Part shown: positions 13,508 through 31,493 of the stretch, one piece after another | How positions within the stretch are numbered: the stretch's first letter is position 1 | Layout of the letters: every line of letters begins with the position of its first letter | Origin: Escherichia phage vB_EcoM-ep3 | Reading direction: 5' to 3' (one strand) | Sequence record: NC_025430.1 | DNA: 42,351 bases | The notes under the pieces: generated by a model | Databases searched by the model: none | What the model saw: only the letters and a program-made list of their open reading frames with translations | Told to the model about the DNA's origin: nothing | Program-made: the position numbers and the translations under genes

Positions 13508-13942
13508 ATGGAATTACCGCGCACTGTGCAGGAAATAGCTGACGTTATTGGCCGTGAACGTGCGCTATATCTTATCGGACAACTACCAAAATTGTGGGTG
13601 CCATCGCAGCAGTACCACAAAGTAATTTTGTATGTGCCAAAGCGGATTCGGCCCAATGACCCCCTGGTGAAAATTCTTGGATGGAGTGACGCCAGCAAGA
13701 TGGTGCAGCACTTCGGTGGTGAAATGCTTCACCCGGCTAATTGCGAATACATTTACCGCCGTTTCATCCACAGCAGCATCAAGCGGATGCACAGCGAAGG
13801 AATGGACGCAAAAGCCATTGCGGAACTGCTGGACGTTTCAGAACGCACCGTGAAGCGGCACTGCACTGACAAACCCCACAAAGACACATCACCTGCAAAT
13901 GACAACACTCCCGAACGACTACTAACCGCTATGGGGCAATGA
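13508..13942 (+). CDS. Mor/C-family-like transcriptional activator (C-terminal HTH)
   Basis: 144 aa. HFGGEMLHPANCEYIYRRFIHSSIKRMHSEGMDAKAIAELLDVSERTVKRH parallels the Mu Mor core (LGGGQVYIP...RD..I...F.G.N..EL....GV....VY). It sits at the early/late boundary. Confidence 0.55.
   Translation: MELPRTVQEIADVIGRERALYLIGQLPKLWVPSQQYHKVILYVPKRIRPNDPLVKILGWSDASKMVQHFGGEMLHPANCEYIYRRFIHSSIKRMHSEGMDAKAIAELLDVSERTVKRHCTDKPHKDTSPANDNTPERLLTAMGQ
13868..13884 (+). promoter_or_regulatory. Late-motif copy 1 (15/17: GACAAACCCCACAAAGA)
   Basis: Inside the 3' end of the Mor-like gene. AACACT follows 19 nt downstream (13904-13909). It ends 62 nt before the holin ATG. Confidence 0.5.
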
Positions 13943-13946
13943 CGAA

Positions 13947-14267
13947 ATGGAGTTTTTCCAGAAATTTCTAGATAACATTGGGTGGGGCATCGCTGGCATA
14001 ATGGGTGCGCTGGTTTCGCTCCCGTTCCACGATGACATCAAATCTGTAAAGGCGCGCATCTGGTTCGTGTGTACCGGTGCAATCTGCGCTTACTTCCTGA
14101 CAGACCTGGTTTCTTTGTATTTCAAAATTGATCGCGGGCTGGCTGGTAGTGTTGGCTTTCTTATGGGGGCATTTGGCGGTTCGCTGCTTGCTGCTGTCAT
14201 CCGGGCCATCAAAGCAGCAGACATTTGGCAACTCCTGAAAAACCGCTTCGGTGGGGGTAACGTATGA
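13947..14267 (+). CDS. Holin-like membrane protein (three predicted TM segments)
   Basis: 106 aa. Hydrophobic stretches GWGIAGIMGALVSLPF, IWFVCTGAICAYFLTDLVSLYF and GLAGSVGFLMGAFGGSLLAAVI. It is the first gene of the lysis cassette. Confidence 0.65.
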   Translation: MEFFQKFLDNIGWGIAGIMGALVSLPFHDDIKSVKARIWFVCTGAICAYFLTDLVSLYFKIDRGLAGSVGFLMGAFGGSLLAAVIRAIKAADIWQLLKNRFGGGNV

Positions 14268-14545
14268 TGCTGTTTACGGTCATCAACTTCATTTCAGTCG
14301 TCATTCTATTCCTTTGGGCCACCTGGTGCGTTTTGTATCAGGGCGTGCGTGATGGCATCGTGGGGAAAATATTGTTTTCCTGCGTTGCCATTTCTGCCCT
14401 GGCAATCATCCTGCATGACATCCAGGGCACCTACACAGCCAAACCGGCAGTCACACTTCACGCCTGCATGGCGGCGGTGGCTGTTCGTCATTTCATCGTC
14501 AACACGGTTTGGAAGCCATTTTTCTCAAAGCTGTTTCATAAGTGA
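14264..14545 (+). CDS. Second lysis-cassette membrane protein (holin/antiholin-like)
   Basis: 93 aa with three hydrophobic segments. It has an ATGA overlap with the upstream gene and lies directly upstream of the endolysin. Confidence 0.55.
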   Translation: MMLFTVINFISVVILFLWATWCVLYQGVRDGIVGKILFSCVAISALAIILHDIQGTYTAKPAVTLHACMAAVAVRHFIVNTVWKPFFSKLFHK

Positions 14546-14553
14546 GGATTGAT

Positions 14554-15033
14554 ATGAAAATTTCATCCAATGGCCTGGCTGTTCTTAAATACTTCGAGAA
14601 TTGCCACCTTAAGGCATATCCAGATCCTGCCACCGGTGGTGCGCCGTGGACGATTGGATGGGGCCACACAGGGCCAGAAGTTAAACGCGGGCTAGTGTGG
14701 ACACAAAAGCAGGCTGATGATGCACTGGTGGCCGACCTGGCACGATTTGAACGCGCAGTTAGTGCCGCCGTTCGTGTTCCGCTGAACCAGGGCCAGTTTG
14801 ATGCGCTGGTTTCGTTCACTTACAACTTGGGTGAAGGCAATCTGAAATCCAGCACGCTGCTGAAAATGGTCAACGCTGGCAACTTTGCCGGTGCTGCTGA
14901 ACAGTTCAAACGCTGGAACAAGGCGAACGGCAAGACGATGCGCGGCCTGACCCGACGCCGTGCCGCTGAACAATGCTTGTTCCTGGGCATGGGTGGTGCG
15001 TCAGCTATTGAACGCGGTGTGGCGGCAGCATGA
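14554..15033 (+). CDS. Endolysin, GH24 (T4/lambda-type) lysozyme
   Basis: The start is moved to ATG 14554, 5 nt after a GAGGA RBS. YFENCHLKAYPD...WTIGWGHT...QFDALVSFTYNLG is the phage lysozyme signature. Confidence 0.9.
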   Translation: MKISSNGLAVLKYFENCHLKAYPDPATGGAPWTIGWGHTGPEVKRGLVWTQKQADDALVADLARFERAVSAAVRVPLNQGQFDALVSFTYNLGEGNLKSSTLLKMVNAGNFAGAAEQFKRWNKANGKTMRGLTRRRAAEQCLFLGMGGASAIERGVAAA

Positions 15034-15551
15034 TGGATAAATACGCTACTCCTGTGAAACTCATTGTGGCGATAATCATCGCCTTTGCGCTGGTATCCTT
15101 CGGGTATGTATCAGGGTTCAGCAAATCAGATCGTGAATGGCAGGCCAAATGGTCTGCCCGCGATGCTGCTGACGCACAGGCACGCCAGCAATTTACCGAA
15201 CAACAACGCCGCATTGAAATACAGCGGCAGGGGGCTATTGATGCTATTCAGGAACAAGCACAGCAGGACATTGCTACAGCACAGCGTAATGCTGCCATTG
15301 CTGCTGCTGAGTCTAAGCGCCTGCAAGACGGTATCGCAGACGCCATCACCAGACTACAGGCAGATAGCGGCAATCCCGGCGCTACCATCAGCAGCAAGAC
15401 AAGGGCCAGCACCAGCAGCCTGCTTGCCGAGTTGTTCAGAGAGATTGACGCAGCAGCGGGCATCTATGCAGCAGAGGCTGACAGGGCAAGAGCCGCAGGG
15501 CTGACCTGTGAACGGGCTTACGACGCAGTGAGAGCGACATCACAACAATGA
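15030..15551 (+). CDS. i-spanin (Rz-like)
   Basis: 173 aa. N-terminal TM segment (LIVAIIIAFALVSFGYV), then an Ala/Gln/Arg-rich coiled-coil periplasmic domain. It overlaps the endolysin stop. Confidence 0.75.
   Translation: MMDKYATPVKLIVAIIIAFALVSFGYVSGFSKSDREWQAKWSARDAADAQARQQFTEQQRRIEIQRQGAIDAIQEQAQQDIATAQRNAAIAAAESKRLQDGIADAITRLQADSGNPGATISSKTRASTSSLLAELFREIDAAAGIYAAEADRARAAGLTCERAYDAVRATSQQ
15241..15504 (+). CDS. o-spanin (Rz1-like lipoprotein), fully embedded in the +1 frame of the i-spanin gene
   Basis: ATG 15241 lies 6 nt after AGGGGG. The signal is MLFRNKHSRTLLQHSVMLPLLLLSLSAC with lipobox LSAC. The mature part is Pro-rich. A shorter alternative start is ATG 15289. Confidence 0.7.
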   Translation: MLFRNKHSRTLLQHSVMLPLLLLSLSACKTVSQTPSPDYRQIAAIPALPSAARQGPAPAACLPSCSERLTQQRASMQQRLTGQEPQG

Positions 15552-15715
15552 AAATATTTTCACGCACGACGCAAATAATGCTTGACATCAGCCGAAGTCG
15601 AAAAAGTCAAGGTACTTCCGAGGGGGGTACAGCCTGCGGGGGCATTGGTCCCGCCTAATTCGCGTTGTGCGTGGATAATCAAAATCGATTTTAGCATTAG
15701 ATAAGGCGGCATTAA

Positions 15716-16240
15716 TTGGCTAAAACAATAAAAGGCCGAACAGTAAACCGCAGCGGCCTGGCGGAAGTTTTCGGGGTAGCACCGCCAACAGTTGACCAGT
15801 GGCGAAAAGACGGCGCGCCCTACGTAACACTTGGCGGGCGTGGTAAAGAATGGGAGTACGACACCGCGCAGGTGGCGGCCTGGTTGCGTGAACGCGATGT
15901 GAAGGCGGCCACCGGCGACGTGATGGCGGATGAAACGGAATTGAAGCGCCGCAAGCTGGCAGCCGAAACCGAAAAAGCAGAACTGGAACTGGCCAAAGCC
16001 AAAGGCGAAGTGGCACCACTGGACCAGGTTGAACGCGCCGTTGCCCGCGCCTTCGCGGAAGTGCGCGCCGGGATGCGCAACCTGCCACAGCGCACCGTTT
16101 CAATGCTTATCGGTGAAACCGATGAACGCCGGTTCAAATCGGTGATGATGGGCGAAATTGACGAAGTGCTGAAATCACTGGTGACCGCTTCCCTGCTGGA
16201 TGGCTATGACGAAGGGGGCGACGGTGACAGCGAAGAATAA
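15716..16240 (+). CDS. Terminase small subunit (lambda Nu1-like)
   Basis: TTG start. VNRSGLAEVFGVAPPTVDQWRKDGAPYVTLGGRGKEWEYDTAQVAAWLRERD aligns closely with the lambda Nu1 N-terminal winged HTH (VNKKQLADIFGASIRTIQNWQEQGMPV..GGGKGNEVLYDSAAVIKWYAERD). Confidence 0.85.
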   Translation: MAKTIKGRTVNRSGLAEVFGVAPPTVDQWRKDGAPYVTLGGRGKEWEYDTAQVAAWLRERDVKAATGDVMADETELKRRKLAAETEKAELELAKAKGEVAPLDQVERAVARAFAEVRAGMRNLPQRTVSMLIGETDERRFKSVMMGEIDEVLKSLVTASLLDGYDEGGDGDSEE

Positions 16241-18248
16241 CCCGTTTGCCAACATTGAAGGCATTGACCAGGCTATCCGGCGCGCACAACAACAATTGTT
16301 GCCGCCGCCAGACATGAAGCCGTCAGAGTGGGCGCAGGCTAATATCCGCATTCCGTCTGGCAACGCCGTGCCAGGACCGCTGCGCCTGGATAACGCGCCA
16401 TACCAGCGCGAACCAATGGACATGCTGGTTGACCCTGATTGCTACCGTGTAACGCTGATGTGGGGCGCGCAGGTGGGCAAAACCATGCTGGCACTGTGCG
16501 TGCAGGCGTACAGCGTAGCCGCTGAACCGCGCAGCCAGATGATGATGCAGCCAAGCCAGGATGACTTGCGCACCTGGCTGGAAACGAAATTCAACCCTCT
16601 GGCGGAAGAATGCGCGCCGGTAAACAACGCCATTGCCAAACCGCGTGGCCGCGACGGGGTGAACAACCAGAAAATGAAATCATACCCTGGCGGGTTCTTG
16701 ATGTTCGCCTGGTCCGGTTCGCCAAAGACCATGCGCGGGCGTTCAGCGCCGCTGATTGTATGTGACGAGGTAGACGGATATGAACGAACCAGCGAAGGGC
16801 ACCCGGTTGGCCTGCTGTGGCAGCGTTCTGCCACCTTCGGTGACCAGCGGTTTTTGCTGGAAATCAGCACCCCTACCCTTAAAGGTGAATCGTACATCGA
16901 AAAAGCGTATGAAATGGGCGACCAGCGGCACTTCTTTGTTTGCTGCCCGCACTGTGACGATCACGTTACGCTTGAATGGGAAAACGTCAAATGGGATGGC
17001 CAGCGGGAAACTGACGCGGAAACGCTGGCGGCCATCGAAGAACAGAAGCCGGAAACAGCGCACCTGTATTGCCCATCGTGCGGCGCGCAGTGGAATGACG
17101 GCGAACGGATAGCGGCTATCCGTCAGGCCGAAGAAAAGGGCGCAGGCTGGAAGGCGTCCAGGCCGTTTGAAGGGCACGCAAGCTACCACCTGAACGAACT
17201 ATACAGCACATTCCGCAAAGTACCGGCCATCGTGCGTGACTACCTGGACAAGCTGAAAACGGACGACCTGCAAACCTTCACCAACGTCAGCCTGGCGCGC
17301 ACCTGGGAAGAAGAAGGCGACAAGGTTGACCCGGATTCACTGATGGCACGCCGCGAGGAATACGCCGCGCAGGTGCCTGCTGGTGGGCTGTATATCACCG
17401 CAGGCATAGACATGCAGGTTGACCGCCTGGAATGTGAGGTGGTGGCCTGGGGCGTTGGTGAAGAATCCTGGTCATTGGGTTACCACGTCCTGTGGGGCGA
17501 CCCTCTGACGCCAGATCCGTGGGATGCGCTTGATGACCTGCTGGCGGAAACCTACCAGCACGAAACCGGCGCAGTGCTGCCGATCATGGCCGCCTGCCTG
17601 GATACCGGCGGCACCAGCGGTTACACGCAGGCCGCCTATGACTACGCCAGAGGGCGCACAGGCCGCCGCCTGTTTGCCATCAAAGGAGTGGGCGGTTGGG
17701 GTCGTCCTATCGTGGAGAAGCCGCAGCGCAAGCAATCCGGGAAGGATGCCCGCAAAGTGGATTTATTCCTGGTGGGCACCGATGAAGCCAAGCTGATAAC
17801 TGCACGCCGTTTAAACAAGACGGCACCGGGGCCAGGTTATTGCCACTTCCCTGCTGACCGCGATGAAGAATGGTTTAAGCAAATCACCGCTGAAAAGCTG
17901 ACCATGCGTTACGTGAAGGGCCAGCCAATCCGCGAGTGGAAGAAACCCGACCGGGCGCGCAACGAAGCACTGGACTGCCGCAACTATGCGCTGGCCGCGC
18001 TTAAAATCATGCAGCCGTCATTCCGCCGCCTGGCTGAAAAGTTTGGCGTAGCGAACGACAACGCGCCACCGGAACGCCGCAAGCGGCTTCCGAACGTCAA
18101 ACCCATCGTGAAACCGGTGGAAGTGCCGCAACCGGCCAATGACAAACCCCAAGAAGAAGAAAAACAGCAAGTCACAGAGACTAAGCCCATTAAACGTTCC
18201 GCCAGGGCATCCAAACGCCGTGGCGGTGGATGGGTTAGCCGCTGGTGA
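16200..18248 (+). CDS. Terminase large subunit (lambda gpA family)
   Basis: 682 aa with a gpA-like N-terminus (PSEWAQANIRIPSGNAVPGPLRLDNAPYQREPMD). An alternative in-frame GTG start at 16224 lies behind AAGGGGG. Confidence 0.9.
   Translation: MAMTKGATVTAKNNPFANIEGIDQAIRRAQQQLLPPPDMKPSEWAQANIRIPSGNAVPGPLRLDNAPYQREPMDMLVDPDCYRVTLMWGAQVGKTMLALCVQAYSVAAEPRSQMMMQPSQDDLRTWLETKFNPLAEECAPVNNAIAKPRGRDGVNNQKMKSYPGGFLMFAWSGSPKTMRGRSAPLIVCDEVDGYERTSEGHPVGLLWQRSATFGDQRFLLEISTPTLKGESYIEKAYEMGDQRHFFVCCPHCDDHVTLEWENVKWDGQRETDAETLAAIEEQKPETAHLYCPSCGAQWNDGERIAAIRQAEEKGAGWKASRPFEGHASYHLNELYSTFRKVPAIVRDYLDKLKTDDLQTFTNVSLARTWEEEGDKVDPDSLMARREEYAAQVPAGGLYITAGIDMQVDRLECEVVAWGVGEESWSLGYHVLWGDPLTPDPWDALDDLLAETYQHETGAVLPIMAACLDTGGTSGYTQAAYDYARGRTGRRLFAIKGVGGWGRPIVEKPQRKQSGKDARKVDLFLVGTDEAKLITARRLNKTAPGPGYCHFPADRDEEWFKQITAEKLTMRYVKGQPIREWKKPDRARNEALDCRNYALAALKIMQPSFRRLAEKFGVANDNAPPERRKRLPNVKPIVKPVEVPQPANDKPQEEEKQQVTETKPIKRSARASKRRGGGWVSRW
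18141..18157 (+). promoter_or_regulatory. Late-motif copy 2 (exact GACAAACCCCAAGAAGA)
   Basis: Inside the terL 3' end, where it encodes DKPQEE. GAGACT follows 19 nt downstream (18177-18182). It ends 97 nt before the next gene start at 18255. Confidence 0.5.
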
Positions 18249-18254
18249 TAAATA

Positions 18255-18794
18255 GTGAAAAACTGCCAAGTACCGCAGAAAATTACTGCTGGATTGACAT
18301 TTGAGACGCGCCTGACGCTTCCCGGCTATCCTGCAACTGAATGGGCTGTTCAGCTACTGCTGCGCGGCCCGCAGTCAATTAACATCAACGCCGTCGCTGA
18401 TGGTAACGATCACGTCATCCGCGCAGCCGCTGGCGTCACTGCAACGTGGCCAGCAGGCGATTACTGGTATTCGCTGCGCGCGACCAAAGGCGATGACGTT
18501 ATGGAGGCCGGAAACGGCCAGATTACCATCCTGCCAGACCTGGCCAGCGCCAGTGATGGATTTAACGGGAAAACTCACGCGCAACGCACCCTGGAAGCCA
18601 TTGAAGCGGTCATAGAGAAGCGCGCGACAATGGACCAGGAACGCTACCGCATCAATAACCGCGAGTTATATCGCACCCCGATTGCGGATTTGCTGAAACT
18701 GCGCGACTTGTACCGCCTGGAAGTAGCACGCGAAAAACAGGCGCAGTGCGGCAAAAACCCGTTCGGGCGTAAAGTTCGGGTGAGCCTTCGCTGA
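18255..18794 (+). CDS. Head-tail joining protein, gpW-like C-terminal domain with N-terminal extension
   Basis: GTG start after a GGTGA RBS. The C-terminus TLEAIEAVIEKRATMDQERYRINNRELYRTPIADLLKLRDLYRLEV resembles lambda gpW. Its position between terL and the portal gene matches lambda. Confidence 0.5.
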   Translation: MKNCQVPQKITAGLTFETRLTLPGYPATEWAVQLLLRGPQSININAVADGNDHVIRAAAGVTATWPAGDYWYSLRATKGDDVMEAGNGQITILPDLASASDGFNGKTHAQRTLEAIEAVIEKRATMDQERYRINNRELYRTPIADLLKLRDLYRLEVAREKQAQCGKNPFGRKVRVSLR

Positions 18795-20350
18795 TGAAAC
18801 TGTGGCCATTTACCAGAAACAAGCCTGCCGAACAGGCACAACAGCCGCGCACGCGGCGTTTACCGCTTAACCGCCTGGCGTCCCGTATGTTTACCGGTGC
18901 CAGTGTTGACCGTTTTGGCACCGCGTGGGGTACACAGCCGCTGACGGCTGATGAAGTCATTACCAAAAATCAACGCATCCTGGTGGCCCGTTCCCGCGAA
19001 CAGGCCGCCAACAATGATTATGCCAAAAAGTTCCTGCGTCTGTGCCGCACAAACATTGTGGGGCCAAAAGGCGTTCTGTTGCAGGCAAAAAGCCAGGATA
19101 ACACCGGAAAACTGGACACCCTGGCGAATGAAGCCATTGAACTGGCGTTTGACGCATGGGGCAAAAAGACCAACTGTGACGTGACCGGTAAGTTGTCCTG
19201 GCGCGCCATCCAGGCCGCCTGCGTCAACAGCGTGGCCAAAGACGGTGAATTCTTCGTGCGCCTGGTGTTTGGGGCTGACGCAGGGCCGTGGGGCTTCTCG
19301 CTGCAACTGCTGGACCCGCAACGCTGTCCTGTGGACATGGTTGAAGATCGACTGCCAAACGGAAATTTCATCCGCCAGGGAATCGAGTTTAACCGATACG
19401 GGCGGCCTATCGCGTATTATTTCAGCACAGTTGATGAATCGGATGAAAACTACCGTTGGGCTGGGCGTGACTTCGTGCGCGTGCCTGCGGATGAAATCCT
19501 GCACGGTTTCTTTGATGACATGGTGGGCCAGAAACGCGGCCTGCCCTGGATGGCCACCAGCCTGTTTCGTATGCGCCACCTGGGCGGCATGGAAGAAGCC
19601 GCACTGGTCAACGCGCGAGCAGGTGCCAACAAAATGGGGTTCATCGAATGGGATGAAAACGGCGCTGGACCTGAATTCGACGATGAAGACGAACTGATCA
19701 TTGACAGTGAACCGGGTGAATTCCAGGTGCTGCCACAGGGCGCACGCATCAAAGACTGGTCACCGCAATACCCCAACGGCGAATTTGCCGTGTTCACCAA
19801 ACAGATGCTGCGCGGCATGGCTTCTGGCATGGGCGTGGCTTACAACAACCTGGCCAACGACCTGGAAGGCGTCAATTTCAGTTCCATCCGACAGGGCACG
19901 CTTGACGAGCGCGAAAGCTGGAAGGAATTGCAGGAATGGCTAATCGAAAACCTGCACCAGCCTGTTTTTGACGCCTGGCTGCCGCGCGCCCTGCTGTCTG
20001 GACGCATCACGGTGAAAGGCCGCAGCCTGAAACCGGAACGCATAGACCGTTACAGCAATATTGAATGGCAGCCACGCCGTTGGGCCTGGATTGACCCGTC
20101 ATCTGACGTGGAAGCGGCTGAAAAATCAAAAAACAACATGCTGCAATCGCCTGGCCGCATCATCCGTGAAGGTGGCAGCGACCCTGACACCGTTTGGAAG
20201 GAAACCGCTAGCGACGTGGCACGCATGATTGAGGCGTACACGCAGCACGGTATCAGCCGAGAAATGGCGGAAAAACTGGTCATGCAAAGCATGGGCATGG
20301 ACAAAACACTGTTAATGGGGCAGCAAAATGCAGAAAAACCTGCTGAATAG
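18794..20350 (+). CDS. Portal protein (lambda gpB family)
   Basis: 518 aa with a TGATG overlap to the upstream gene. The size, position and overall sequence pattern are typical of lambda-family portals. Confidence 0.85.
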   Translation: MKLWPFTRNKPAEQAQQPRTRRLPLNRLASRMFTGASVDRFGTAWGTQPLTADEVITKNQRILVARSREQAANNDYAKKFLRLCRTNIVGPKGVLLQAKSQDNTGKLDTLANEAIELAFDAWGKKTNCDVTGKLSWRAIQAACVNSVAKDGEFFVRLVFGADAGPWGFSLQLLDPQRCPVDMVEDRLPNGNFIRQGIEFNRYGRPIAYYFSTVDESDENYRWAGRDFVRVPADEILHGFFDDMVGQKRGLPWMATSLFRMRHLGGMEEAALVNARAGANKMGFIEWDENGAGPEFDDEDELIIDSEPGEFQVLPQGARIKDWSPQYPNGEFAVFTKQMLRGMASGMGVAYNNLANDLEGVNFSSIRQGTLDERESWKELQEWLIENLHQPVFDAWLPRALLSGRITVKGRSLKPERIDRYSNIEWQPRRWAWIDPSSDVEAAEKSKNNMLQSPGRIIREGGSDPDTVWKETASDVARMIEAYTQHGISREMAEKLVMQSMGMDKTLLMGQQNAEKPAE

Positions 20351-22376
20351 CATCATTGGGGCCGAATTTACCCGCAAATCAGACAGCAAAACGCTGCCTG
20401 ATTTCAACAAAGGCGGGCTGGTGCGCACTATGGAAGTGCGCAAGTTTGACACCGAAAAACGCACCGTAGAACTGGCGTTTTCCTCCGAAATCGAGGTTGA
20501 ACGCTGGTACGGTATCGAAATTCTGGACCATTCGCCGGAAAGCGTGCGCCTGGACCGTCTGCGTGACGGTGGGGCGCTGCTGGTTGACCACGATTGGACT
20601 GACCAGGTGGGCGTTGTTGAATCCGTCAGCATTGACGCTGACCGCCGGGGGCGGGCTGTGGTGCGCTTTGGCCGAAGTGCACGCGCTGACGAGATTTTCC
20701 AGGACATCGTTGACGGCATTCGCAAGCATGTTTCCGTTGGCTACCGCGTGTTAGCGGCCAAGCTACAGGAAACGCGTGACGAGTGGCAGGATGTCTACCG
20801 CATCACTGAATGGGAACCGTTCGAAATTTCAATTGTGAGCGTTCCCGCTGACACCAGCGTTGGCATTGGGCGTGCGTTTGACAAACCCCAAGAAGAACAA
20901 CGCGGCATCAAATCCGATACTGCGGGCACCGTAGAGGTTCCAGCACCAAAAAAATCATTTGAGGATTCACGAATGTTAGAAAAAATTCTGCGCGACGCTG
21001 CCGGTAACCTGGTGCGCGCGATGGTAGACGAGAAAGGCAACATCACGCAGGTTCTGGAAATGCTGGAACGTGCTGGCGATGATGCGCGCAACGCTGAACA
21101 GCGTGGCCGTGAAGCGGAAAAGGCGCGCGTGCGTTCCATCACTGAAATGGGCGAGAAGTACAACGCACGTGACCTGGCTTTGAAAGCTATTGGCGAAGGC
21201 ACCACCGCCGAAGATTTCCAGCGTTCCTTGCTGGACCACCTGAACAAGCCGAAAGACCCGGCACAACCGGCTGATGACACCCGTTCCGGCAGCAAGCCGC
21301 TGTCAGAAATGCCGTCCAGCGTGATTGGTATGTCTGACAAAGACATCCGCCGCTATAGCATTTTCAACGTGGTTCGCGCGCTGGCTAACCCGAACGATGC
21401 AGCCGCACAGCGTGCCGCAGCGTTTGAAATCGAATGCAGCCACGCAGCGCAACAGCAGTATGGCCGCAGTGCAAAAGGCATCCTGATCCCTGACGATGTT
21501 CTGCGCGCATTCAACGCTGGTGGCGCACCGAACACCCCGACAGGTGCACAGACCGGTTCCAACCTGGTTGGCACTGACTTTATGGCCAGTTCGTTCATCG
21601 ACCTGCTGCGCCCGCGTACCACCATCATGCGCCTGGCGCGTACTATGGGCGGCCTGGTTGGCAACGTTGAAATTCCGAAACAGACTGGCGGCGCTACTGC
21701 CTACTGGATTGGTGAAGGTGATGACGCAACCGAAACCACGCCGACCATCGGCCAGCTTAGTTTGTCACCGAAAACCGTTGCGGCTTACACCGACATTACC
21801 CGCCGCCTGCTGATGCAATCCACCCCGGATGCGGAAGCTATCGTGCGCGGTGACCTGGTGGCAGCTATCGCGCAGGCGATTGATTACGCTGGCTACTACG
21901 GCACCGGCACCAGCAACCAGCCGCTGGGTCTGGCGAACTACACCGGCATTAATGCGGTAGACTTCGCAGCAGCCAACCCGACTTATGCGGAACTGGTGCA
22001 GATGGAAACCGAAATCGCGGCTGACAACGCTGACGTGAACAACATGGCATATGTGCTGAACGCGCGTGGCCGTGGTGCAGCGAAAACCACGCCGAAGTTT
22101 GCCAGTGGTTCTTCCGTGGCTGACGCTGGCGTGATTTGGGAACCGGGCAACACCCTGAACGGTTACCGCGCCGAAGTTACCAACCAGGTTCAGGATGGTG
22201 ACGTGTTCTTTGGCAACTTCGCTGACTTGGTTGTTGGTATGTGGGGCGGCCTGGACATGACGGTTGACCCGTATAGCCTGAGCAAATCCGGTGGCCTGCG
22301 CATCGTGGTATTCCAGGACGTGGATTTTGCGGTGCGCCGCGTTGAATCCTTCTGCCTGGGCCGCAACGCAGCATAA
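20328..22376 (+). CDS. Prohead serine protease (HK97 S78 type) fused in frame to scaffold-like linker and HK97-fold major capsid protein
   Basis: 682 aa. The N-terminal ~185 aa is protease-like (RTVELAFSSEIEVERWYG...HDWTDQVGVVES...ISIVSVPAD). A coiled-coil region follows, then a C-terminal MCP pattern (GSNLVGTDFMASSFIDLLRPRTTIMRLA...AYWIGEGD). Confidence 0.8.
   Translation: MQKNLLNSIIGAEFTRKSDSKTLPDFNKGGLVRTMEVRKFDTEKRTVELAFSSEIEVERWYGIEILDHSPESVRLDRLRDGGALLVDHDWTDQVGVVESVSIDADRRGRAVVRFGRSARADEIFQDIVDGIRKHVSVGYRVLAAKLQETRDEWQDVYRITEWEPFEISIVSVPADTSVGIGRAFDKPQEEQRGIKSDTAGTVEVPAPKKSFEDSRMLEKILRDAAGNLVRAMVDEKGNITQVLEMLERAGDDARNAEQRGREAEKARVRSITEMGEKYNARDLALKAIGEGTTAEDFQRSLLDHLNKPKDPAQPADDTRSGSKPLSEMPSSVIGMSDKDIRRYSIFNVVRALANPNDAAAQRAAAFEIECSHAAQQQYGRSAKGILIPDDVLRAFNAGGAPNTPTGAQTGSNLVGTDFMASSFIDLLRPRTTIMRLARTMGGLVGNVEIPKQTGGATAYWIGEGDDATETTPTIGQLSLSPKTVAAYTDITRRLLMQSTPDAEAIVRGDLVAAIAQAIDYAGYYGTGTSNQPLGLANYTGINAVDFAAANPTYAELVQMETEIAADNADVNNMAYVLNARGRGAAKTTPKFASGSSVADAGVIWEPGNTLNGYRAEVTNQVQDGDVFFGNFADLVVGMWGGLDMTVDPYSLSKSGGLRIVVFQDVDFAVRRVESFCLGRNAA
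20880..20896 (+). promoter_or_regulatory. Late-motif copy 3 (exact GACAAACCCCAAGAAGA)
   Basis: At the protease/linker junction, where it encodes DKPQEE. GATACT follows 19 nt downstream (20916-20921). It ends 76 nt before the internal ATG at 20973. Confidence 0.5.
20973..22376 (+). CDS. Possible nested in-frame product: scaffold(delta)-major capsid protein from an internal start
   Basis: ATG 20973 lies 7 nt after a GAGGA RBS inside the fusion ORF. The product would begin MLEKILRDAAGNLVRAMVDEKGN..., a coiled-coil delta-domain-like N-terminus. Confidence 0.45.
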   Translation: MLEKILRDAAGNLVRAMVDEKGNITQVLEMLERAGDDARNAEQRGREAEKARVRSITEMGEKYNARDLALKAIGEGTTAEDFQRSLLDHLNKPKDPAQPADDTRSGSKPLSEMPSSVIGMSDKDIRRYSIFNVVRALANPNDAAAQRAAAFEIECSHAAQQQYGRSAKGILIPDDVLRAFNAGGAPNTPTGAQTGSNLVGTDFMASSFIDLLRPRTTIMRLARTMGGLVGNVEIPKQTGGATAYWIGEGDDATETTPTIGQLSLSPKTVAAYTDITRRLLMQSTPDAEAIVRGDLVAAIAQAIDYAGYYGTGTSNQPLGLANYTGINAVDFAAANPTYAELVQMETEIAADNADVNNMAYVLNARGRGAAKTTPKFASGSSVADAGVIWEPGNTLNGYRAEVTNQVQDGDVFFGNFADLVVGMWGGLDMTVDPYSLSKSGGLRIVVFQDVDFAVRRVESFCLGRNAA

Positions 22377-22381
22377 TGAAC

Positions 22382-22401
22382 ATGGCCGCTTCGGCGGCCA
22401 T
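22382..22401 (+). terminator. GC-rich hairpin after the capsid gene (attenuator or mRNA stabiliser; no T-run)
   Basis: ATGGCCGC-TTCG-GCGGCCAT, 5 nt after the capsid stop codon. Confidence 0.4.
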
Positions 22402-23086: not shown

Positions 23087-23418
23087 TGCCCGCGCCGTCC
23101 TGGGAAAACCTGGACGACTTTTTTGACCTTGACACCAACGGCGGGTTTGCATTTCCCGCCGTTATTCATTCGCAAAAAGGTTGGACCAGAACAATTAACG
23201 CCATCTTTGATGACCCCTACTTCAACGCGCAAATAGGCGAGTATGAAGCGGACACCAGCAGCCCGCGAATCACGGCAAAGGAATCTGACCTGGCTGGCAT
23301 CCTGCGTGGTGACACAATCATTGTGGCCGGTGAAACCTTCGATGTGCTGGCATCCCCTGAACAGGATGGCACAGGCACTGCCGTTGTGAGGATGACGCGC
23401 CAAGATGCTGCATTTTGA
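23086..23418 (+). CDS. Head-tail joining protein (lambda gpFII-like)
   Basis: 110 aa. INAIFDDPYFNAQIGEYEADTSSPRITAKESDLAGILRGDTIIVAGETFDV...DGTG parallels lambda FII (IRGVFDDPENISYAG...SSPSLFVRTDEV..LRRGDTL...F.V...DDGG). Confidence 0.55.
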   Translation: MPAPSWENLDDFFDLDTNGGFAFPAVIHSQKGWTRTINAIFDDPYFNAQIGEYEADTSSPRITAKESDLAGILRGDTIIVAGETFDVLASPEQDGTGTAVVRMTRQDAAF

Positions 23419-23959
23419 CCTGGATTGGCAACAACTGCGCGGCGTGGCTACTGAACTGGAAGCCAGTGAAAAGCAGTTCAAAGCCGCATTAAGCCGCGCT
23501 TGCAACCGCACGGCGGCCACCCTGCGCAAAATGTCTGGCCGTGGCCTGAAAGATGAACTGCAACTGCGCACGATGGCGGCTATGCGCAAGCGCCTAAAAT
23601 CCATCAGGCTGCGCACGCGCCAACAGGGCGTTGTGTTGTGGTACGGCTTAAATGATTTGCCGGTGAGTAGCTTTAAGGGCCGCGCCAAGCAGACCAGCGA
23701 CGGTGCCACGTTCCGTGACCAGAAGTTTGACGGCGCATTTGTGGGCCGCAGCACGGTGAAAGGCAAACGTACAGTGTTTAAACGCGCTGGAAAAGCACGC
23801 CTGCCCATCACTGAACAGTTGATGCCCATTAAGGACAAAGCCGAAATTTTCATTGAAGATGAAATATTCACGCAGGTTGAAGAAATATTCTGGAAGCACT
23901 TCGAACGCGATATTAAAGCGCGCGTCAAATACTTTGAAACATCCGACAGGTGGGCATAA
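23405..23959 (+). CDS. Tail completion / minor tail protein Z-like
   Basis: 184 aa. The basic central region (LKSIRLRTRQQGVVLWYGLNDLPVSSFKGRAKQ...KRTVFKRAGKARLPI) resembles lambda gpZ-family proteins. Confidence 0.45.
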   Translation: MLHFDLDWQQLRGVATELEASEKQFKAALSRACNRTAATLRKMSGRGLKDELQLRTMAAMRKRLKSIRLRTRQQGVVLWYGLNDLPVSSFKGRAKQTSDGATFRDQKFDGAFVGRSTVKGKRTVFKRAGKARLPITEQLMPIKDKAEIFIEDEIFTQVEEIFWKHFERDIKARVKYFETSDRWA

Positions 23960-24528
23960 TGAACGCCGATACTCACATTGATTTAGAAGTGCTGCACAGC
24001 GCCATTGTGGCCGACATCAAAGCAGCATTCCCGCAACTGGTCACCGTGGAGTTTTACCAGGATGACCCGGAAGCGCGCAAAACGCTGCCAATTCCCGCCT
24101 GCCTGCTGACCATCAGCGAACTGGAGGCAGACAACGAGATTGACCCCGGCACGGAACAGTTGGCCGTTGTGGCGACGTTTGAGGCGCATTTCATCATTAA
24201 CAGCATCAGGACACCCCGCGCCGCCCTGGCCATCAGGACGCTGGCCGCTGCCTTCATGGCCTGGCTGCGCAAGCGCCGCTGGACCAACCCGGCAGACCCC
24301 GCCAGGAAGCTGCCCACAGGGACAGCCAACGTGGTTGGCGGCTTCCCTGACGACTTCACCCCGGAACTGGACAAATTCGAGGTGTGGCGCGTGGAGTGGC
24401 AGCAAGTCATCCACCTGGGCGAAAGCGTGTGGAACGATGAAGGCATAACCCCATCAGAGGTTTATTTCAGTTGGTTGCCTGAAATTGGCACCGGCAACGA
24501 AGAAGATTACGAGAAGGTGAACCCATGA
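23959..24528 (+). CDS. Hypothetical tail-completion-module protein
   Basis: The start is placed at ATG 23959 (TAATG overlap, AGGTGG RBS). The ORF-track GTG at 23950 is an alternative. Confidence 0.5.
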   Translation: MNADTHIDLEVLHSAIVADIKAAFPQLVTVEFYQDDPEARKTLPIPACLLTISELEADNEIDPGTEQLAVVATFEAHFIINSIRTPRAALAIRTLAAAFMAWLRKRRWTNPADPARKLPTGTANVVGGFPDDFTPELDKFEVWRVEWQQVIHLGESVWNDEGITPSEVYFSWLPEIGTGNEEDYEKVNP

Positions 24529-25178
24529 TCGCAGAAGTTAGCGAACTGAACCGCCAGCTAAACAACGTTGTGCGCATCGGCACCATCAAACAACTGGACC
24601 TGGCCAACGCGCGTGCTAAAGTTTCCGTTGCTGGCTGCACCACTGACTGGCTGCCCTGGGGAACCAACCGTGCCGGGAAGCGCCGCGACTGGTCACCGCC
24701 TGTCATCGGCGAACAGGTAGTTTTGTTTGCGCCTTACGGCGACTTAGGCCAGGCAGTCATTGGGCCGTCAATCTTCCAGGATGACCACGCGGCACCAGCG
24801 GCAAGCGCGGACCAGGAAACAACCGTTTACCCTGACGGCACAACGGTGGACTACAACAGCGCAAGCAACACGCTGACCATCACCGTGGCTGGTGCAGGTA
24901 ATGTCATCATTAACTGCAAACAGGCCAACGTGAACACTGAAACGGCCACCGTGACGGCATCAACAAGCGTCACTCTGGACACGCCTGACACGTTTTGCAC
25001 CGGCAACCTGACCGTGGCCAAAAGTTTCCAGATGGGAAGCGAAGGCGGAACGGCTACGATGACTGGTAACGTGGCGATTGAAGGCGGAAGCCTGACACAC
25101 AACGGCAAAAACATTGGCAGCAACCATGCTCACAGCGGCGTGCAGTCTGGTGGCAGCAACACCGGCGCACCGGTGTGA
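24525..25178 (+). CDS. Baseplate spike/assembly protein (P2 gpV-like)
   Basis: 217 aa. VVRIGTIKQLDLANARAKVSVAGCTTDWLPW...GEQVVLFAPYGDLGQAVI is the gpV OB-fold pattern. The C-terminus is a repetitive beta-helix-like segment. Confidence 0.8.
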   Translation: MIAEVSELNRQLNNVVRIGTIKQLDLANARAKVSVAGCTTDWLPWGTNRAGKRRDWSPPVIGEQVVLFAPYGDLGQAVIGPSIFQDDHAAPAASADQETTVYPDGTTVDYNSASNTLTITVAGAGNVIINCKQANVNTETATVTASTSVTLDTPDTFCTGNLTVAKSFQMGSEGGTATMTGNVAIEGGSLTHNGKNIGSNHAHSGVQSGGSNTGAPV

Positions 25179-25181
25179 CCT

Positions 25182-25198
25182 GACAAACCCCAAGAAGA
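25182..25198 (+). promoter_or_regulatory. Late-motif copy 4 (exact GACAAACCCCAAGAAGA)
   Basis: Intergenic, 3 nt after the gpV stop. CATCAT follows 20 nt downstream (25219-25224). It ends 33 nt before the gpW ATG. Confidence 0.5.
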
Positions 25199-25211
25199 TA
25201 AACCATCACCC

Positions 25212-25233
25212 ATGCGGGCATCATTGCCCGCAT
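25212..25233 (+). promoter_or_regulatory. Perfect 9-bp-stem hairpin that includes the first two bases of the gpW start codon
   Basis: ATGCGGGCA-TCAT-TGCCCGCAT. The 5' arm starts a 7-codon mini-ORF (MRASLPA, 25212-25235) whose TGA overlaps the gpW ATG at 25232. Confidence 0.6.
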
Positions 25234-25570
25234 GAAAGGAACAAACGCGGCCACAGGCGCGCCGCTGGATGGTTTAGACCATCTGCGCCAATCCATAAGA
25301 GACATACTCACGACGCCAATTGGCACGCGAGTGATGCGCCGCGACTACGGCAGCCGGTTGCCCTACCTGGTTGATGCACCGATGAACCGCAGCACGCTGC
25401 TGGACCTGTACGCAGCGACTGCGGAAGCACTGGAAGCCTGGGAACCACGCATCAGCGTGCAGCAGGTGACAGCAACATCAGCAGAACCAGGACGCGTGGA
25501 ATTGTCCATTACCGGCGAATACCTGCCAGACGGCAAACAAATAACAATTGACGGCATAGTGGTGACATAA
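25232..25570 (+). CDS. Baseplate wedge protein (P2 gpW / T4 gp25-like)
   Basis: 112 aa. LRQSIRDILTTPIGTRVMRRDYGSRLPYLVDAPMN is the GPW/gp25 signature. Confidence 0.85.
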   Translation: MKGTNAATGAPLDGLDHLRQSIRDILTTPIGTRVMRRDYGSRLPYLVDAPMNRSTLLDLYAATAEALEAWEPRISVQQVTATSAEPGRVELSITGEYLPDGKQITIDGIVVT

Positions 25571-26473: not shown

Positions 26474-27059
26474 CTTATTGCCATATAATTCAACAGAACA
26501 GGAACGCGCACTGGCTGAAACAATAGCCAGGATTAGTGACGTTCCGGTTGTCGTGCGTGAAGTCTGGAACCCTGACACATGCCCATCAAGCGTTCTGCCC
26601 TGGCTGGCTTGGGCGTTCAGCGTTGACGATTGGGATACTACCTGGTCAGACGAGCAGAAACGCAAGGTAATTAAAGAGTCGGTTTATTCGCAGCGCATAA
26701 AAGGCACTATCGGGGCTGTTACGCGTCAGCTTGTTGCTTTGGGCTACCAGATTCAGATCCTTGAGTGGTTTAAACAAAGCCCGATTGGCCAGCCGTACAC
26801 ATTTGATGTTTACATTACTGCTAATCAATATCCGTTAACTCAAGAAGATTTTAAAAAAATACTACAAGTGATTGACACTAACAAAAACCTGCGTTCGCAC
26901 CTGGATGAAACGCAGTTGATTGTTAAGTCAGAAAGTAAAACGACTGCTGCCATTGTCTGTGGCACAGGAAATGAAATTAGTCTGACGAACTACACCAGAT
27001 TTGTTGGTGCTTTGAATGACTATGTTATGGTGCAACCAAATATATCTATAGGTGCTTAA
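26466..27059 (+). CDS. Baseplate/tail protein (P2 gpI-like)
   Basis: The start is placed at ATG 26466 (ATGTCTGA overlap with the gpJ stop). LLPYNSTEQERALAE...VWNPDTCPSSVLPWLAWAFSVDDWD is the gpI signature. Confidence 0.8.
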   Translation: MSDLLPYNSTEQERALAETIARISDVPVVVREVWNPDTCPSSVLPWLAWAFSVDDWDTTWSDEQKRKVIKESVYSQRIKGTIGAVTRQLVALGYQIQILEWFKQSPIGQPYTFDVYITANQYPLTQEDFKKILQVIDTNKNLRSHLDETQLIVKSESKTTAAIVCGTGNEISLTNYTRFVGALNDYVMVQPNISIGA

Positions 27060-29303: not shown

Positions 29304-29310
29304 CAAACAA

Positions 29311-29326
29311 CCCCACTTCGGTGGGG
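29311..29326 (+). terminator. Hairpin after the tailspike gene (weak terminator)
   Basis: CCCCAC-TTCG-GTGGGG followed by TAGCAAATTTT. Confidence 0.45.
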
Positions 29327-29356
29327 TAGCAAATTTTAAAATTGAGGCCAAACACA

Positions 29357-30694
29357 ATGCCATTTCTTACAATTCATACTAACTATGGTCTGCAAAAGCT
29401 TGCGCAGGCTGAATCAACAGGAACGCAAATCCGGTTGACGCATATGGCAGTTGGCGACGGCAACGGAAATGCTGCGCCGCCTAATCCAAATCAGACGCAG
29501 TTGGTGCGTGAACGTTTCCGCGCAACCATCAACCGCGTTTATCAGGATGCAAATAACCCGCTGCGCTTCACTGCTGAATTGGTTATCCCGGCCAGCGTTG
29601 GTGGTTTTACTATGCGTGAGGTTGGTGTTTTTGACGCTGATGGTTCTCTGTTTGCTGTTGGCGATCTTCCATCTACTTACAAGCCGGTTGATACAGAAGG
29701 TGCCTACTCTGACACGGTTGTGCGGCTTGACTTCATGGTAAGCAACGCCAGCACTATCACCCTACAAGTTGACCCAAATGTTGTGGTTGTCACACAGCAG
29801 TGGATTTCTAACAACGTGACAGCAGGAACCATCATCCCTGGTGGCACAACCGGGCAGGTTCTTGCAAAGCAGTCAAACGCTGACGGTGACGTCCATTGGG
29901 TTGACCCTACACAAGCAAACGTTGTGGTTGATACCATCACCGAAAAACAAACATTGGCAGCCAACCAGACTGTAGTGATGCTGACAACAACCATAACACG
30001 CGGACTGGCGGTGTATATCGAAGGCATCAGGCTGCCGCAAGGTTCTGGTGTTGATGAGTGGCAGCCTGATGCAACTGACTCGTCGAAATTTACACTTGGG
30101 AAGCCTTACCCAGATGGGTCGATTTTGCAGGCTGTGAACAATGAACCAGCAGGAAGCGCACCTGCTCCACTGGAAAGAAGTAAAAACCTTTCAGATGTTG
30201 CAAGTAAATCCGAGTCACGGAGCAACCTTGAAGTTTACAGCAAAACGGAAACTGACCAAAAGATGCCGACAGGTGGAATTGTTTATTTTCCACGCTCTAC
30301 GGCACCGACAGGATGGTTGAAAGCCAATGGGGCTGCGATCAGTAGAACGGCTTATGCAAATCTTTTTTCTGTAATAGGAACAATGTTTGGCAATGGTGAC
30401 GGTGTTAACACGTTCAATTTGCCAGATCTGCGCGGAGAATTCATCAGAGGATATGATGACGGTAGAGGTGTAGACGCTTCACGGTCACTAGGTAGCTATC
30501 AGGCCGATGAAATAAAAACCCACTATCACAGATTGGGGAGTGAATTTGTAGCAAACGGAGCCGAAAACCTTATTGCTGACGCCTGGGACCAGGGCACTAG
30601 CGGCAATTATCCAGAAGGAATTGGCACTGGATACACAGGCGGTACAGAAACCAGACCGCGAAACATCGCTCTACTGGCGTGCATCAAATTTTGA
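29357..30694 (+). CDS. Tail fibre protein (P2 gpH-like N-terminus, C-terminal tail-collar domain)
   Basis: The start is moved to ATG 29357 (MPFLTIHTNYGLQKLAQAE...HMAVGDGNG). The C-terminal collar motif is WLKANGAAISRTAYANLFSVIGTMFGNGDGVNTFNLPDLRGEFIRG. Confidence 0.8.
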   Translation: MPFLTIHTNYGLQKLAQAESTGTQIRLTHMAVGDGNGNAAPPNPNQTQLVRERFRATINRVYQDANNPLRFTAELVIPASVGGFTMREVGVFDADGSLFAVGDLPSTYKPVDTEGAYSDTVVRLDFMVSNASTITLQVDPNVVVVTQQWISNNVTAGTIIPGGTTGQVLAKQSNADGDVHWVDPTQANVVVDTITEKQTLAANQTVVMLTTTITRGLAVYIEGIRLPQGSGVDEWQPDATDSSKFTLGKPYPDGSILQAVNNEPAGSAPAPLERSKNLSDVASKSESRSNLEVYSKTETDQKMPTGGIVYFPRSTAPTGWLKANGAAISRTAYANLFSVIGTMFGNGDGVNTFNLPDLRGEFIRGYDDGRGVDASRSLGSYQADEIKTHYHRLGSEFVANGAENLIADAWDQGTSGNYPEGIGTGYTGGTETRPRNIALLACIKF

Positions 30695-30702
30695 GGCGAA
30701 TC

Positions 30703-31008
30703 ATGAAGACAAAACCCGTTTATCAATATGACGTCGCTGGCCTTTTTGTTGGCCAGACAGATGCTGATGAATCACCTCTTGAACCTGGTGTTTTTCTAAT
30801 TCCTGCACGCTGCGTAGAGGTGGCACCCCCTGAATTTTCAGGTGACCAATGGCCACGCTGGAACGGCGCAAAGTGGGAACTGATTAGCGTATCGCCAGCT
30901 AACGATAACCAACCGGCAAGCCCGGTTGATAAACTGCGAGAATTCCTGAACGCAAACCCTGACGTGGCCGCGCTGATTGGCGCAACGAATGAGGCAACCA
31001 ATGTATGA
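30703..31008 (+). CDS. Tail fibre assembly chaperone (gpG/Tfa-like)
   Basis: The start is moved to ATG 30703 behind a GAGG RBS. YQYDVAGLFVGQTDADESPLEPGVFLIPARCVEVAPP...WPRWNGAKWEL is the Caudo_TAP pattern. Confidence 0.7.
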   Translation: MKTKPVYQYDVAGLFVGQTDADESPLEPGVFLIPARCVEVAPPEFSGDQWPRWNGAKWELISVSPANDNQPASPVDKLREFLNANPDVAALIGATNEATNV

Positions 31009-31367
31009 GCGAAGTCTTAAGGGGCATCACTAACAAAAACCTTGCAGCGCAAGGATACCAGGAATTACCTGGCGGCATGATTATTCAGTGGGGTAGTTTC
31101 ACCAGCACCGTTACATCTGGTGCAGGCACAACCGATACACGTATGTACCAGGGCACGCAGAGTGTCACGTTTCCAAAACCGTTCCCTACGGCTGTGGTAA
31201 GCATTCAGGCTACGCCAAGAGACAACGAAAACATTATTCTTGAATATGCCAATATCAGTGGTCGGACGCTAACCACATTTTCAAGCATTCTTGGCGGCGT
31301 CCAGAACGAAGGAACGGTGCCAGGAACCACAACACTAACCGTTGACTGGTTCGCTATCGGTTATTGA
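31005..31367 (+). CDS. Small fibre-associated protein (gp53-like C-terminal domain type)
   Basis: 120 aa with an ATGA overlap to the upstream gene. GYQELPGGMIIQWGSF...VTFPKPFPTAVVSIQATP is a pattern seen at the tips of many phage fibres. Confidence 0.5.
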   Translation: MSEVLRGITNKNLAAQGYQELPGGMIIQWGSFTSTVTSGAGTTDTRMYQGTQSVTFPKPFPTAVVSIQATPRDNENIILEYANISGRTLTTFSSILGGVQNEGTVPGTTTLTVDWFAIGY

Positions 31368-31379
31368 TTTGTCGCCTTT

Positions 31380-31401
31380 GCCCGCTTCGGCGGGCTTTTT
31401 T
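31380..31401 (+). terminator. Strong rho-independent terminator after the fibre cassette
   Basis: GCCCGC-TTCG-GCGGGC followed by TTTTTT. Confidence 0.85.
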
Positions 31402-31404
31402 ACG

Positions 31405-31421
31405 GACAAACCCCAAGAAGA
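31405..31421 (+). promoter_or_regulatory. Late-motif copy 5 (exact GACAAACCCCAAGAAGA)
   Basis: Intergenic, 3 nt after the terminator T-run. GACCAT follows 19 nt downstream (31441-31446). It ends 72 nt before the sheath ATG. Confidence 0.55.
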
Positions 31422-31493
31422 AGCCACGCACGGTTCCTGCGACCATCACACTGCGAATTTTCACTGTGTGCACAGTTAATAGGAAACCGAATA

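Follow-up and report, generated by a model that had tools for sequence, protein, structure and literature searches.

The window analysed here, a stretch of 42,351 nucleotides, is the complete, circularly permuted genome of Escherichia phage vB_EcoM-ep3 (NC_025430.1), a small myophage of the genus Jilinvirus in the subfamily Iiscvirinae. Its late genes follow one another on the plus strand, beginning with a candidate transcriptional activator gene (13508-13942) and continuing with the lysis genes (holin, holin, endolysin and spanin) and the terminase, head, baseplate, fibre and tail genes. Dispersed over this region is a 17-bp sequence, hereafter called the box, whose five copies probably mark activator-dependent late promoters. 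Among the known relatives, Escherichia phage vB_EcoM_ECOO78 is 97-98% identical to the window across most of its length, and HeidiAbel_Bas97, Alux-21, ECO1230-10 and Salmonella phage PT1 share ~90-95% identity with it. Enterobacter phage Arya and Klebsiella phage KA2-1 are ~77-84% identical in the aligned parts; Serratia phage MQ-4, the Pseudomonas phages PPpW-3 and Persinger and Achromobacter phage Mano are more remote.

The box recurs far beyond chance. A scan of both strands of the whole window, allowing up to three mismatches, returned four exact copies and one copy with 15 of 17 matching positions (sites A to E in genome order; Table 1), all on the plus strand, and zero matches on the minus strand. 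Chance would give 0.10 +/- 0.30 matches, and five were reached in none of 100 shuffles. All copies are confined to the late half of the genome; the early half is free of them. The copies at 13868, 18141 and 20880 fall inside the open reading frames (ORFs) 13508-13942, 16200-18248 and 20328-22376, respectively. In all three the first base of the box, G1, occupies codon position 1, so that the box is read as D-K-P-(H/Q), and the synonymous positions are the same among them. Of the two intergenic copies, the one at 25182 begins 3 nt past the stop codon of the gpV ORF (24525-25178), and the one at 31405 begins 3 nt past a terminator and ends 72 nt before the sheath ATG. The distance from the box to the next start codon is variable, from about 50 to 115 nt. 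When the five flanks were aligned, no conservation was seen outside the box except at the positions of a downstream hexamer, nor was any shared RNA structure evident. These positions, the recurrence and the placement relative to genes, terminator and sheath gene agree with an earlier, sequence-only reading of this DNA. A search of 596 Gb of species-representative bacterial genomes yielded 94 single hits of the exact 17-mer in unrelated taxa, which is about as many as 4^17 leads one to expect by chance; the 17-mer is thus not a host motif, and the genome scan says nothing further.

Conservation of the box and its partner hexamer

Eleven complete relatives of the window were fetched and scanned for the box. 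In every one of them, and in all of the twelve complete relatives counted altogether, it is found at the same five places: at the 3' end of the activator gene, at the 3' end of terL, within the protease-capsid ORF, in the gap between gpV and gpW, and between the terminator and the sheath gene. Within a genome the copies are the same or nearly the same, and between genera they differ. The window and its close relatives carry GACAAACCCCAAGAAGA, MQ-4 carries GACAAACCCAAAGAAGA, Arya GACACCCCGCACGAAGA, KA2-1 GACAAGCCGCACGAAGA, Mano GAAAA(G/C/T)CCGCAAGAGGA, Persinger GAAATCCCACAAGAGGA and PPpW-3 GCAAACCCACAAGAGGA. No opposite-strand copies were found in the relatives, save one loose pattern match in PPpW-3. 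Since coding and intergenic copies change together, a protein-level explanation is excluded and the conservation resides in the nucleotides, as the sequence-only reading had held for the coding copies; such concerted change within each genome points to one reader acting in trans. Moreover, that reading had proposed to ask whether the box is retained at syntenic positions in related phages and is more conserved than the synonymous sites around it; the positions are retained, and the box is more conserved than its flanks. Of 85 box columns compared across six close genomes, 1 varies, vs 17-31% in the flanks (Fisher p = 6e-9); the comparison was ungapped, and indels inflate the flank values in two places. 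This low variation holds although three of the copies sit in three unrelated coding sequences.

The same layout extends to uncultured viruses. An alignment of 30 activator homologues was used to fetch 80 loci from IMG/VR with up to 10 kb of downstream sequence. The screen of these loci asked for a 17-mer close to the activator gene's 3' end and for its recurrence downstream with NANNNT at +19 or +20. About 50 of these 80 viral contigs show the arrangement, with boxes at the activator 3' end and then ~4.3 kb and ~7 kb downstream, only places within 10 kb being visible. Most of the loci that lack it have under 4.3 kb of sequence past the activator gene and hence cannot show it; a pairwise screen added four more. 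This collection contains at least ten additional variants of the box, e.g., GAAATCCCACGGGAGGA, CAGAACCCACAAGAGGA, CCTATCTCGCAGGAGGA and GAAAAACCGCCACAGGA. Degeneracy is highest at site A in 19 of 28 loci: on average this copy differs from the others by 1.3 mismatches, vs 0.4 for B compared with C (Wilcoxon p = 2e-4). Such degeneracy may reflect a weak promoter that delays lysis, or coding constraints.

A second element is found at a fixed distance from the box. The sample consists of 35 sites from seven diverged genomes (the window, MQ-4, Arya, KA2-1, Mano, Persinger and PPpW-3), and NANNNT follows the box after exactly 19 nt in 32 of them and after 20 nt in the remaining three (site D in the window, in Arya and in KA2-1). 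At any other offset between 0 and 44 the count does not exceed six. The hexamers are mostly NANAMT, with A at position 4 in 25 of the 32 sites at +19, and the spacers between box and hexamer have diverged among the seven genomes. Two positions that persist as the neighbouring bases drift are the signature of a functional -10 element. The hexamers previously claimed for the window, at +19 and once at +20, are indeed all there. Partial matches to the first 8 nt of the box, at 10541 and 40522, had been listed as well; both exist, neither is followed by NANNNT at +19 or +20, and as promoters they are rejected and probably due to chance. The former is accounted for by a short (CAAAC)n-like run (GACAAACCAAACAAACCAAACAAAG, 10541-10565) in the intergenic space that separates primase from methyltransferase.

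A canonical sigma-70 promoter, with a TTGACA-like and a TATAAT-like hexamer 16-18 bp apart, was considered and rejected: none of the five sites is among the matches of a consensus scan, which gave no -35/-10 pair there. The bases at the -35 position, of AAGAAG or AGGAAC type, agree with TTGACA in at most two of six positions when read by eye. If the hexamer is taken as -12 to -7, the box extends from about -48 to -32; for the proposed promoters in general its extent is put at about -50/-48 to -34/-32. Its centre is located 28 bp 5' of the first base of the hexamer and would fall at ~-40, or at -42 when the predicted start is anchored on the gpW ATG at site D. In eight box variants the best self-complementarity was 2-4 of 8 pairs, no better than in shuffled sequences, i.e., there is no dyad symmetry. 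The geometry of Mor- or C-type sites suggested by the sequence-only reading therefore stands in part: a -10-like hexamer without a -35 is present and the box would lie near the -35 region, but the dyad is absent and the centre would be at -40 to -42, close to the -43.5 of phage Mu but not identical with it.

Anchors at the individual sites

Independent features accompany the box at four of the sites. At site D, the ATG of gpW follows the hexamer after 7 nt in six of the seven genomes and after 6 nt in Mano. In the window this ATG (25232) is the first start codon of its ORF, the protein aligns with PHROG 43 (baseplate wedge) from residue 1, and no Shine-Dalgarno sequence precedes it in any of the seven diverged genomes. 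The gpW messenger RNA (mRNA) is therefore predicted to be leaderless, its transcript starting from the A of the ATG or next to it, which fits all seven genomes. The annotations of KA2-1 and PT1 place the gpW start further downstream, and this disagreement between gene callers would follow from a leaderless mRNA devoid of a Shine-Dalgarno sequence. The same site holds an inverted repeat, CATGCGGGCA-tcat-TGCCCGCATG, whose 3' arm contains the gpW start codon and which as RNA reaches -20.3 kcal/mol (z -5.6). Covariation of its arms is seen in MQ-4, Mano and PPpW-3; Arya and KA2-1 lack the repeat. On read-through transcripts it could mask the ATG; alternatively, it could serve as an operator.

At site E, an intrinsic terminator is found 5' of the box in all seven diverged genomes. 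Site C is embedded in ORF 20328-22376, which encodes a 682-aa fusion of protease, scaffold and major capsid protein (Peptidase_S78 at residues 84-176, Phage_capsid at residues 410-678). Here, an internal in-frame ATG is present 36-57 nt past the hexamer in seven of the seven diverged genomes, preceded by a Shine-Dalgarno-like sequence in six of them, and opens a conserved M(L/N)EKILRDA… scaffold segment. A nested scaffold-capsid protein that lacks the protease domain is thus predicted to start at ATG 20973.

In the case of site A, the DNA signal lies in the part of the activator gene that encodes residues 123-144, a tail predicted to be disordered (predicted local distance difference test, pLDDT, <50). 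The near-invariant A-N-D-N of the activator family is the translation of the site A -10 region (GATAACAMT), and the …PQEE… of the (D/E)xP(Q/H)(E/K)(E/D) motif, within residues 121-144, is the translation of the box. Because these conserved peptide motifs translate the box and the -10 within a disordered tail, they look imposed by the DNA signal and not by protein function.

Table 1. Candidate late-promoter features and candidate activator gene in the window (positions and strand refer to NC_025430.1)
Feature	Position	Strand	Remarks
Candidate late activator gene, 144 aa	13508..13942	+	PHROG 836 match; 3' end holds candidate promoter A
Box A, GACAAACCCCACAAAGA (15/17)	13868..13884	+	inside 3' end of activator gene; candidate lysis-gene promoter, holin ATG 13947
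-10-like hexamer A, AACACT	13904..13909	+	19 nt past box; predicted start near 13916
Box B, exact	18141..18157	+	coding DNA of terL C-terminal tail (…NDKPQEEE…); syntenic in all relatives
-10-like hexamer B, GAGACT	18177..18182	+	19 nt past box; predicted start near 18189, upstream of head-tail joining gene (18255) and portal
Box C, exact	20880..20896	+	variable linker between protease domain and scaffold/capsid part, ORF 20328-22376
-10-like hexamer C, GATACT	20916..20921	+	19 nt past box; predicted start near 20928
Shine-Dalgarno GAGGA (20961-20965) and in-frame internal ATG (20973)	20961..20975	+	
Box D, exact	25182..25198	+	intergenic, 3 nt past gpV stop
-10-like hexamer D, CATCAT	25219..25224	+	20 nt past box; gpW ATG 25232 after 7 nt
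Perfect 10-bp inverted repeat	25211..25234	+	brackets candidate -10 of site D, contains gpW start codon
Intrinsic terminator	31380..31401	+	stem 31380-31395 and T-run to 31401; closes tail-fibre unit, directly 5' of box E
Box E, exact	31405..31421	+	intergenic
-10-like hexamer E, GACCAT	31441..31446	+	19 nt past box; predicted start near 31453, upstream of sheath gene (ATG 31494)

The candidate activator and known late-promoter systems

In the protein encoded at 13508-13942, a helical/beta domain at the N terminus is followed by an FGGE linker, a C-terminal helix-turn-helix whose recognition helix is SERTVKRH, and the disordered tail (residues 123-144). Its counterparts in the records of relatives are annotated as 'late transcriptional activator', and it matches PHROG 836, which bears the same name, at 1.1e-30. 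Pfam returned generic helix-turn-helix hits only, with no PF08765 (Mor) hit at E <= 0.1 for the window protein; PF08765 is weakly matched by 9 of 30 activator homologues (best E 8e-6). The AlphaFold2 model of the window protein has a pLDDT of 82, and no significant match of its fold to that of Mor (1RR7) was found. Mor and C of phage Mu belong to PHROG 532 and have secondary matches to PHROG 836 (1e-10 and 2e-11) that cover the linker and helix-turn-helix half only. An hhalign comparison of the activator with Mu Mor gave E = 0.016 over the FGG linker and helix-turn-helix, and that with Mu C gave no useful alignment. The description as a Mor/C-like activator in the sequence-only reading agrees with the gene position and has to be tempered to a distant relationship with Mor and C.

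The recognition helix and the box vary together. The helix SERTVKRH of the enteric phages is paired with GACA as the 5' tetranucleotide of the box, S(D/E)R(H/Q)VRN with GAAA, SRETVNA with CAGA and SASQVRL with C(C/G)TA, and the 3' half, (A/G)GA(A/G)GA, is conserved across these helix classes. This co-variation is consistent with the activator protein being the reader of the box. A more far-reaching picture, which we offer as a conjecture and consider somewhat less likely than not, is that the box-regulator pairs, with at least ten box variants among Iiscvirinae-like phages, form a large natural set that co-evolves and is possibly mutually orthogonal. In this picture, a Mor/C-like protein would read the asymmetric 17-bp site in a manner unlike the dyad and tetramer of Mu. 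Its recognition helix would determine which 5' tetranucleotide is bound, and the conserved 3' half would be read either by a conserved region of the protein or by RNA polymerase. Promoters placed in DNA for a disordered tail and for variable linker or tail segments would dictate the peptide motifs PQEE…ANDN of those proteins.

Upstream of the activator gene there is a 387-bp non-coding gap (13121-13507) containing an intrinsic terminator (13141-13157, with a T-run). The best sigma-70-like match of this region, TGGTCA-17-TACAAT at 13441-13469, lies in the same gap and is a candidate for the activator's own (middle) promoter.

The closest functional parallel is phage Mu. Its late promoters have -10 hexamers and no -35, and a 16-bp imperfect dyad centred at -43.5 that overlaps the -35 region is bound by C (PMC2582627); according to cryo-electron microscopy, Mor and C act as tetramers on dyads just 5' of a poor -35 element (bioRxiv 10.1101/2025.05.02.651988). 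As in Mu (Plys, PI, PP and Pmom with C; Pm with Mor), several late promoters with a -10 and without a -35 are predicted per genome. The activator gene is positioned directly 5' of the lysis genes, just as lys comes after C in Mu, and a candidate lysis promoter is found at the 3' end of the activator gene. Through PHROG 836, the window activator shares the linker and helix-turn-helix half with Mor and C. However, the sites of Mu are 16-bp dyads, whereas the box is asymmetric, with its centre ~2-3.5 bp closer to the -10, and the window regulator has neither its own Pfam Mor hit nor a significant fold match to 1RR7. In further contrast to Mu, three of the five candidate promoters are inside coding sequences and one has a predicted leaderless mRNA.

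The order of tail and baseplate genes in the window resembles that of phage P2. The late operons of P2 are activator-dependent and devoid of a -35, as is predicted here, and four to five such operons are counted in both systems. The P2 promoter PF heads the same sheath-to-gpD unit as candidate promoter E, and candidate promoter D, in front of baseplate and fibre genes, is close to P2 PV. P2 late promoters carry a TGT-N12-ACA dyad at about -55, and the late promoters of P2, 186 and P4 are activated by the zinc-finger proteins Ogr, Delta and B; the box is closer to the -10 than this dyad. TGT-N12-ACA is absent within 60 nt upstream of each of the five boxes, no Ogr-like zinc-finger protein was found among the window proteins, and ORF 40558-40779 contains no cysteines. 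Late promoters of the P2 type, dependent on Ogr or Delta, are thus excluded.

A third parallel concerns site C. Candidate promoter C together with the internal ATG 20973 would give a scaffold-capsid product nested within the protease-scaffold-capsid ORF, similar to the C/Nu3 arrangement of lambda, and the annotation of one relative indeed reads 'protease C / scaffolding Nu3'. Unlike in lambda, the product ratio would be governed by a dedicated promoter within the ORF and not by an internal ribosome-binding site alone.

Proposed late transcription, its alternatives and its significance

We propose that the five boxes belong to activator-dependent late promoters without a -35 that work like the late promoters of Mu, with the product of 13508-13942 as the most likely activator, and consider this reading probable. 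It had been put forward by the sequence-only reading and is supported by synteny, fixed spacing, the lack of a -35, the gpW geometry and the co-variation of helix and box. The sequence features, their synteny and joint change within genomes, the spacing and the co-variation are observed directly; the starts, the need for an activator and the identity of that activator are inferred. In the proposed mechanism, host RNA polymerase with sigma-70 would use five late promoters with a weak -10 (NANNNT), at which an asymmetric box of 17-18 bp, ending 19-20 bp 5' of the -10, would replace the -35 element. A phage activator, most likely the 144-aa helix-turn-helix protein, would bind the box and recruit or reposition the polymerase. 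Promoter A would then head the lysis genes, and promoter B the head-tail joining, portal and protease-capsid genes. Promoter C would head the nested scaffold-capsid product from ATG 20973 and the head- and tail-completion genes. Transcription of the baseplate and fibre genes, the first of them on a leaderless gpW mRNA, would start from promoter D, and that of the sheath-to-gpD tail genes from promoter E after the terminator.

Several points weigh against this proposal. The 35 sites of the hexamer comparison are not independent observations, as sites of the same class are orthologous, and the -10 hexamers are weak, GACCAT and CATCAT each agreeing with TATAAT in three of six positions. The transcription starts are predicted from the hexamers alone. 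Mor and C, as dimers or tetramers, recognize imperfect dyads, and the box lacks dyad symmetry. In addition, the co-variation of helix and box is confounded with phylogeny, and three IMG/VR loci with 10 kb of downstream sequence were negative for the box in the screen.

Part of these points bears on the identity of the reader. The boxes could be late promoters that are recognized by another phage protein, i.e., another helix-turn-helix protein, the ParB-like protein (39365-40240) or a TraR/DksA-like zinc-finger protein (546-755, minus strand); the product of 13508-13942 would then have some other role. The genome indeed encodes several other DNA-binding proteins, the assignment to the activator draws on family annotation, gene position and a co-variation confounded with phylogeny, and neither the dyad expected of Mor/C-type binding nor structural similarity to Mor was detected. 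Nevertheless, it was the activator alignment that retrieved the 80 loci, and of those that can be tested the majority show the layout, starting at the 3' end of the activator gene itself; furthermore, recognition-helix classes match box classes in many lineages. With respect to the ParB-like protein, its gene occupies a different, early position in PPpW-3 and Mano. ParB sites are normally palindromic, and the palindromic ACAATSATTGT discussed below is a better candidate for ParB than the box. Taken together, a reader other than the activator seems improbable.

The other alternatives deny the box a role in transcription initiation. Its strict single orientation and dispersed positions recall Chi-like or architecturally imprinted sequences, and one may think of a Chi-like, orientation-dependent signal for recombination or against nucleases, a packaging or replication signal, or the site of a nucleoid-organising protein. 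Such a signal would leave unexplained the NANNNT at +19 or +20 in 35 of 35 sites, the placement after a terminator and before operon starts, and the fixed distance between hexamer and ATG at gpW. Moreover, the boxes are confined to the late half of the genome, and the chance-level frequency of the 17-mer among bacteria speaks against a host signal. We regard this option as very unlikely.

We see equally little room for an RNA-level role on read-through transcripts, be it as a processing site, translational signal or stabiliser. The 3' half of the box is Shine-Dalgarno-like in many lineages (AAGAGGA, GGGAGGA, AGGAGGA), three copies are within long transcribed ORFs, and a strong hairpin adjoins site D. 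Yet the boxes are at variable distances from the next start codon that are too large for ribosome binding, and in the enteric phages the 3' half, GAAGA, is not Shine-Dalgarno-like. What is conserved at a fixed distance from the box is a -10-like hexamer rather than a start codon, and the flanks lack an evident shared RNA structure. The arrangement of terminator and promoter and the gpW geometry would again be left unexplained. A shared DKPQEE peptide or mere chance, finally, which the common frame of three copies, D-K-P-(Q/H)-(E/K)-(E/D), might suggest, has a negligible probability and is ruled out by the shuffles and by the joint change of intergenic and coding copies between genera, and is further contradicted by the two intergenic copies, by the identical synonymous positions and by the location of the DKPQEE peptides in a predicted disordered tail and in variable linker or tail segments.

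Some other features of these genomes were noticed. The near-palindrome ACAAT(C/G)ATTGT occurs six times in the window (1469-1479, 4739-4749, 23314-23324, 33462-33472, 37340-37350 and 39278-39288), with 16 strand-matches at up to one mismatch vs 1.3 expected. Six copies, at seemingly syntenic positions, are present in each E. coli or Salmonella relative, four in Arya, seven in KA2-1 and two in MQ-4, and the Pseudomonas and Achromobacter relatives have zero. As one copy is situated just 5' of the ParB-like gene, a parS-like site is a lead worth noting. In PPpW-3, a tandem array of 12-bp units (GGGCCGCAGCCA-like) at 37829-38015, within ORF 37524-38099, is unrelated to the candidate late promoters. 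No tRNA gene was found in the window, and no integrase-sized ORF is present at the place where Bas97, PT1 and MQ-4 have a tRNA-Arg and an integrase (40780-41600); the genome is therefore an integrase-less member of the group, like ECOO78 and ECO1230-10.

The box family appears to be undescribed. The box variants were not found printed in the searchable literature, which leaves the PPpW-3 genome paper and other subscription papers out of reach, and text matches were obtained only for the 11-base fragment CCGCAAGAGGA, in unrelated papers. The publications on Jilinvirus, Foxunavirus and Arya that were consulted mention no promoter motif. An activator-dependent phage late promoter without a -35 is of a well-known kind; what sets this family apart is the asymmetric box, a regulator distant from Mor and C, candidate promoters in coding DNA and a predicted leaderless gpW mRNA.

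Jilinvirus, the enterobacterial genus of the subfamily, was referred to in the BASEL paper as not well characterised (PMC11990801). The present analysis provides a predicted transcription map, with five late units and their start sites, for a phage subfamily. This group includes the phage-therapy candidates ECO1230-10, ep3 and PPpW-3, as well as Bas97, which can be plated on E. coli K-12 in which the O16 antigen has been restored. The candidate promoters embedded in coding DNA offer a clear example of how such signals would constrain protein sequence. Furthermore, the box variants and the recognition-helix variants paired with them offer a starting point for deriving a specificity code of Mor/C-like activators and for making orthogonal expression parts.

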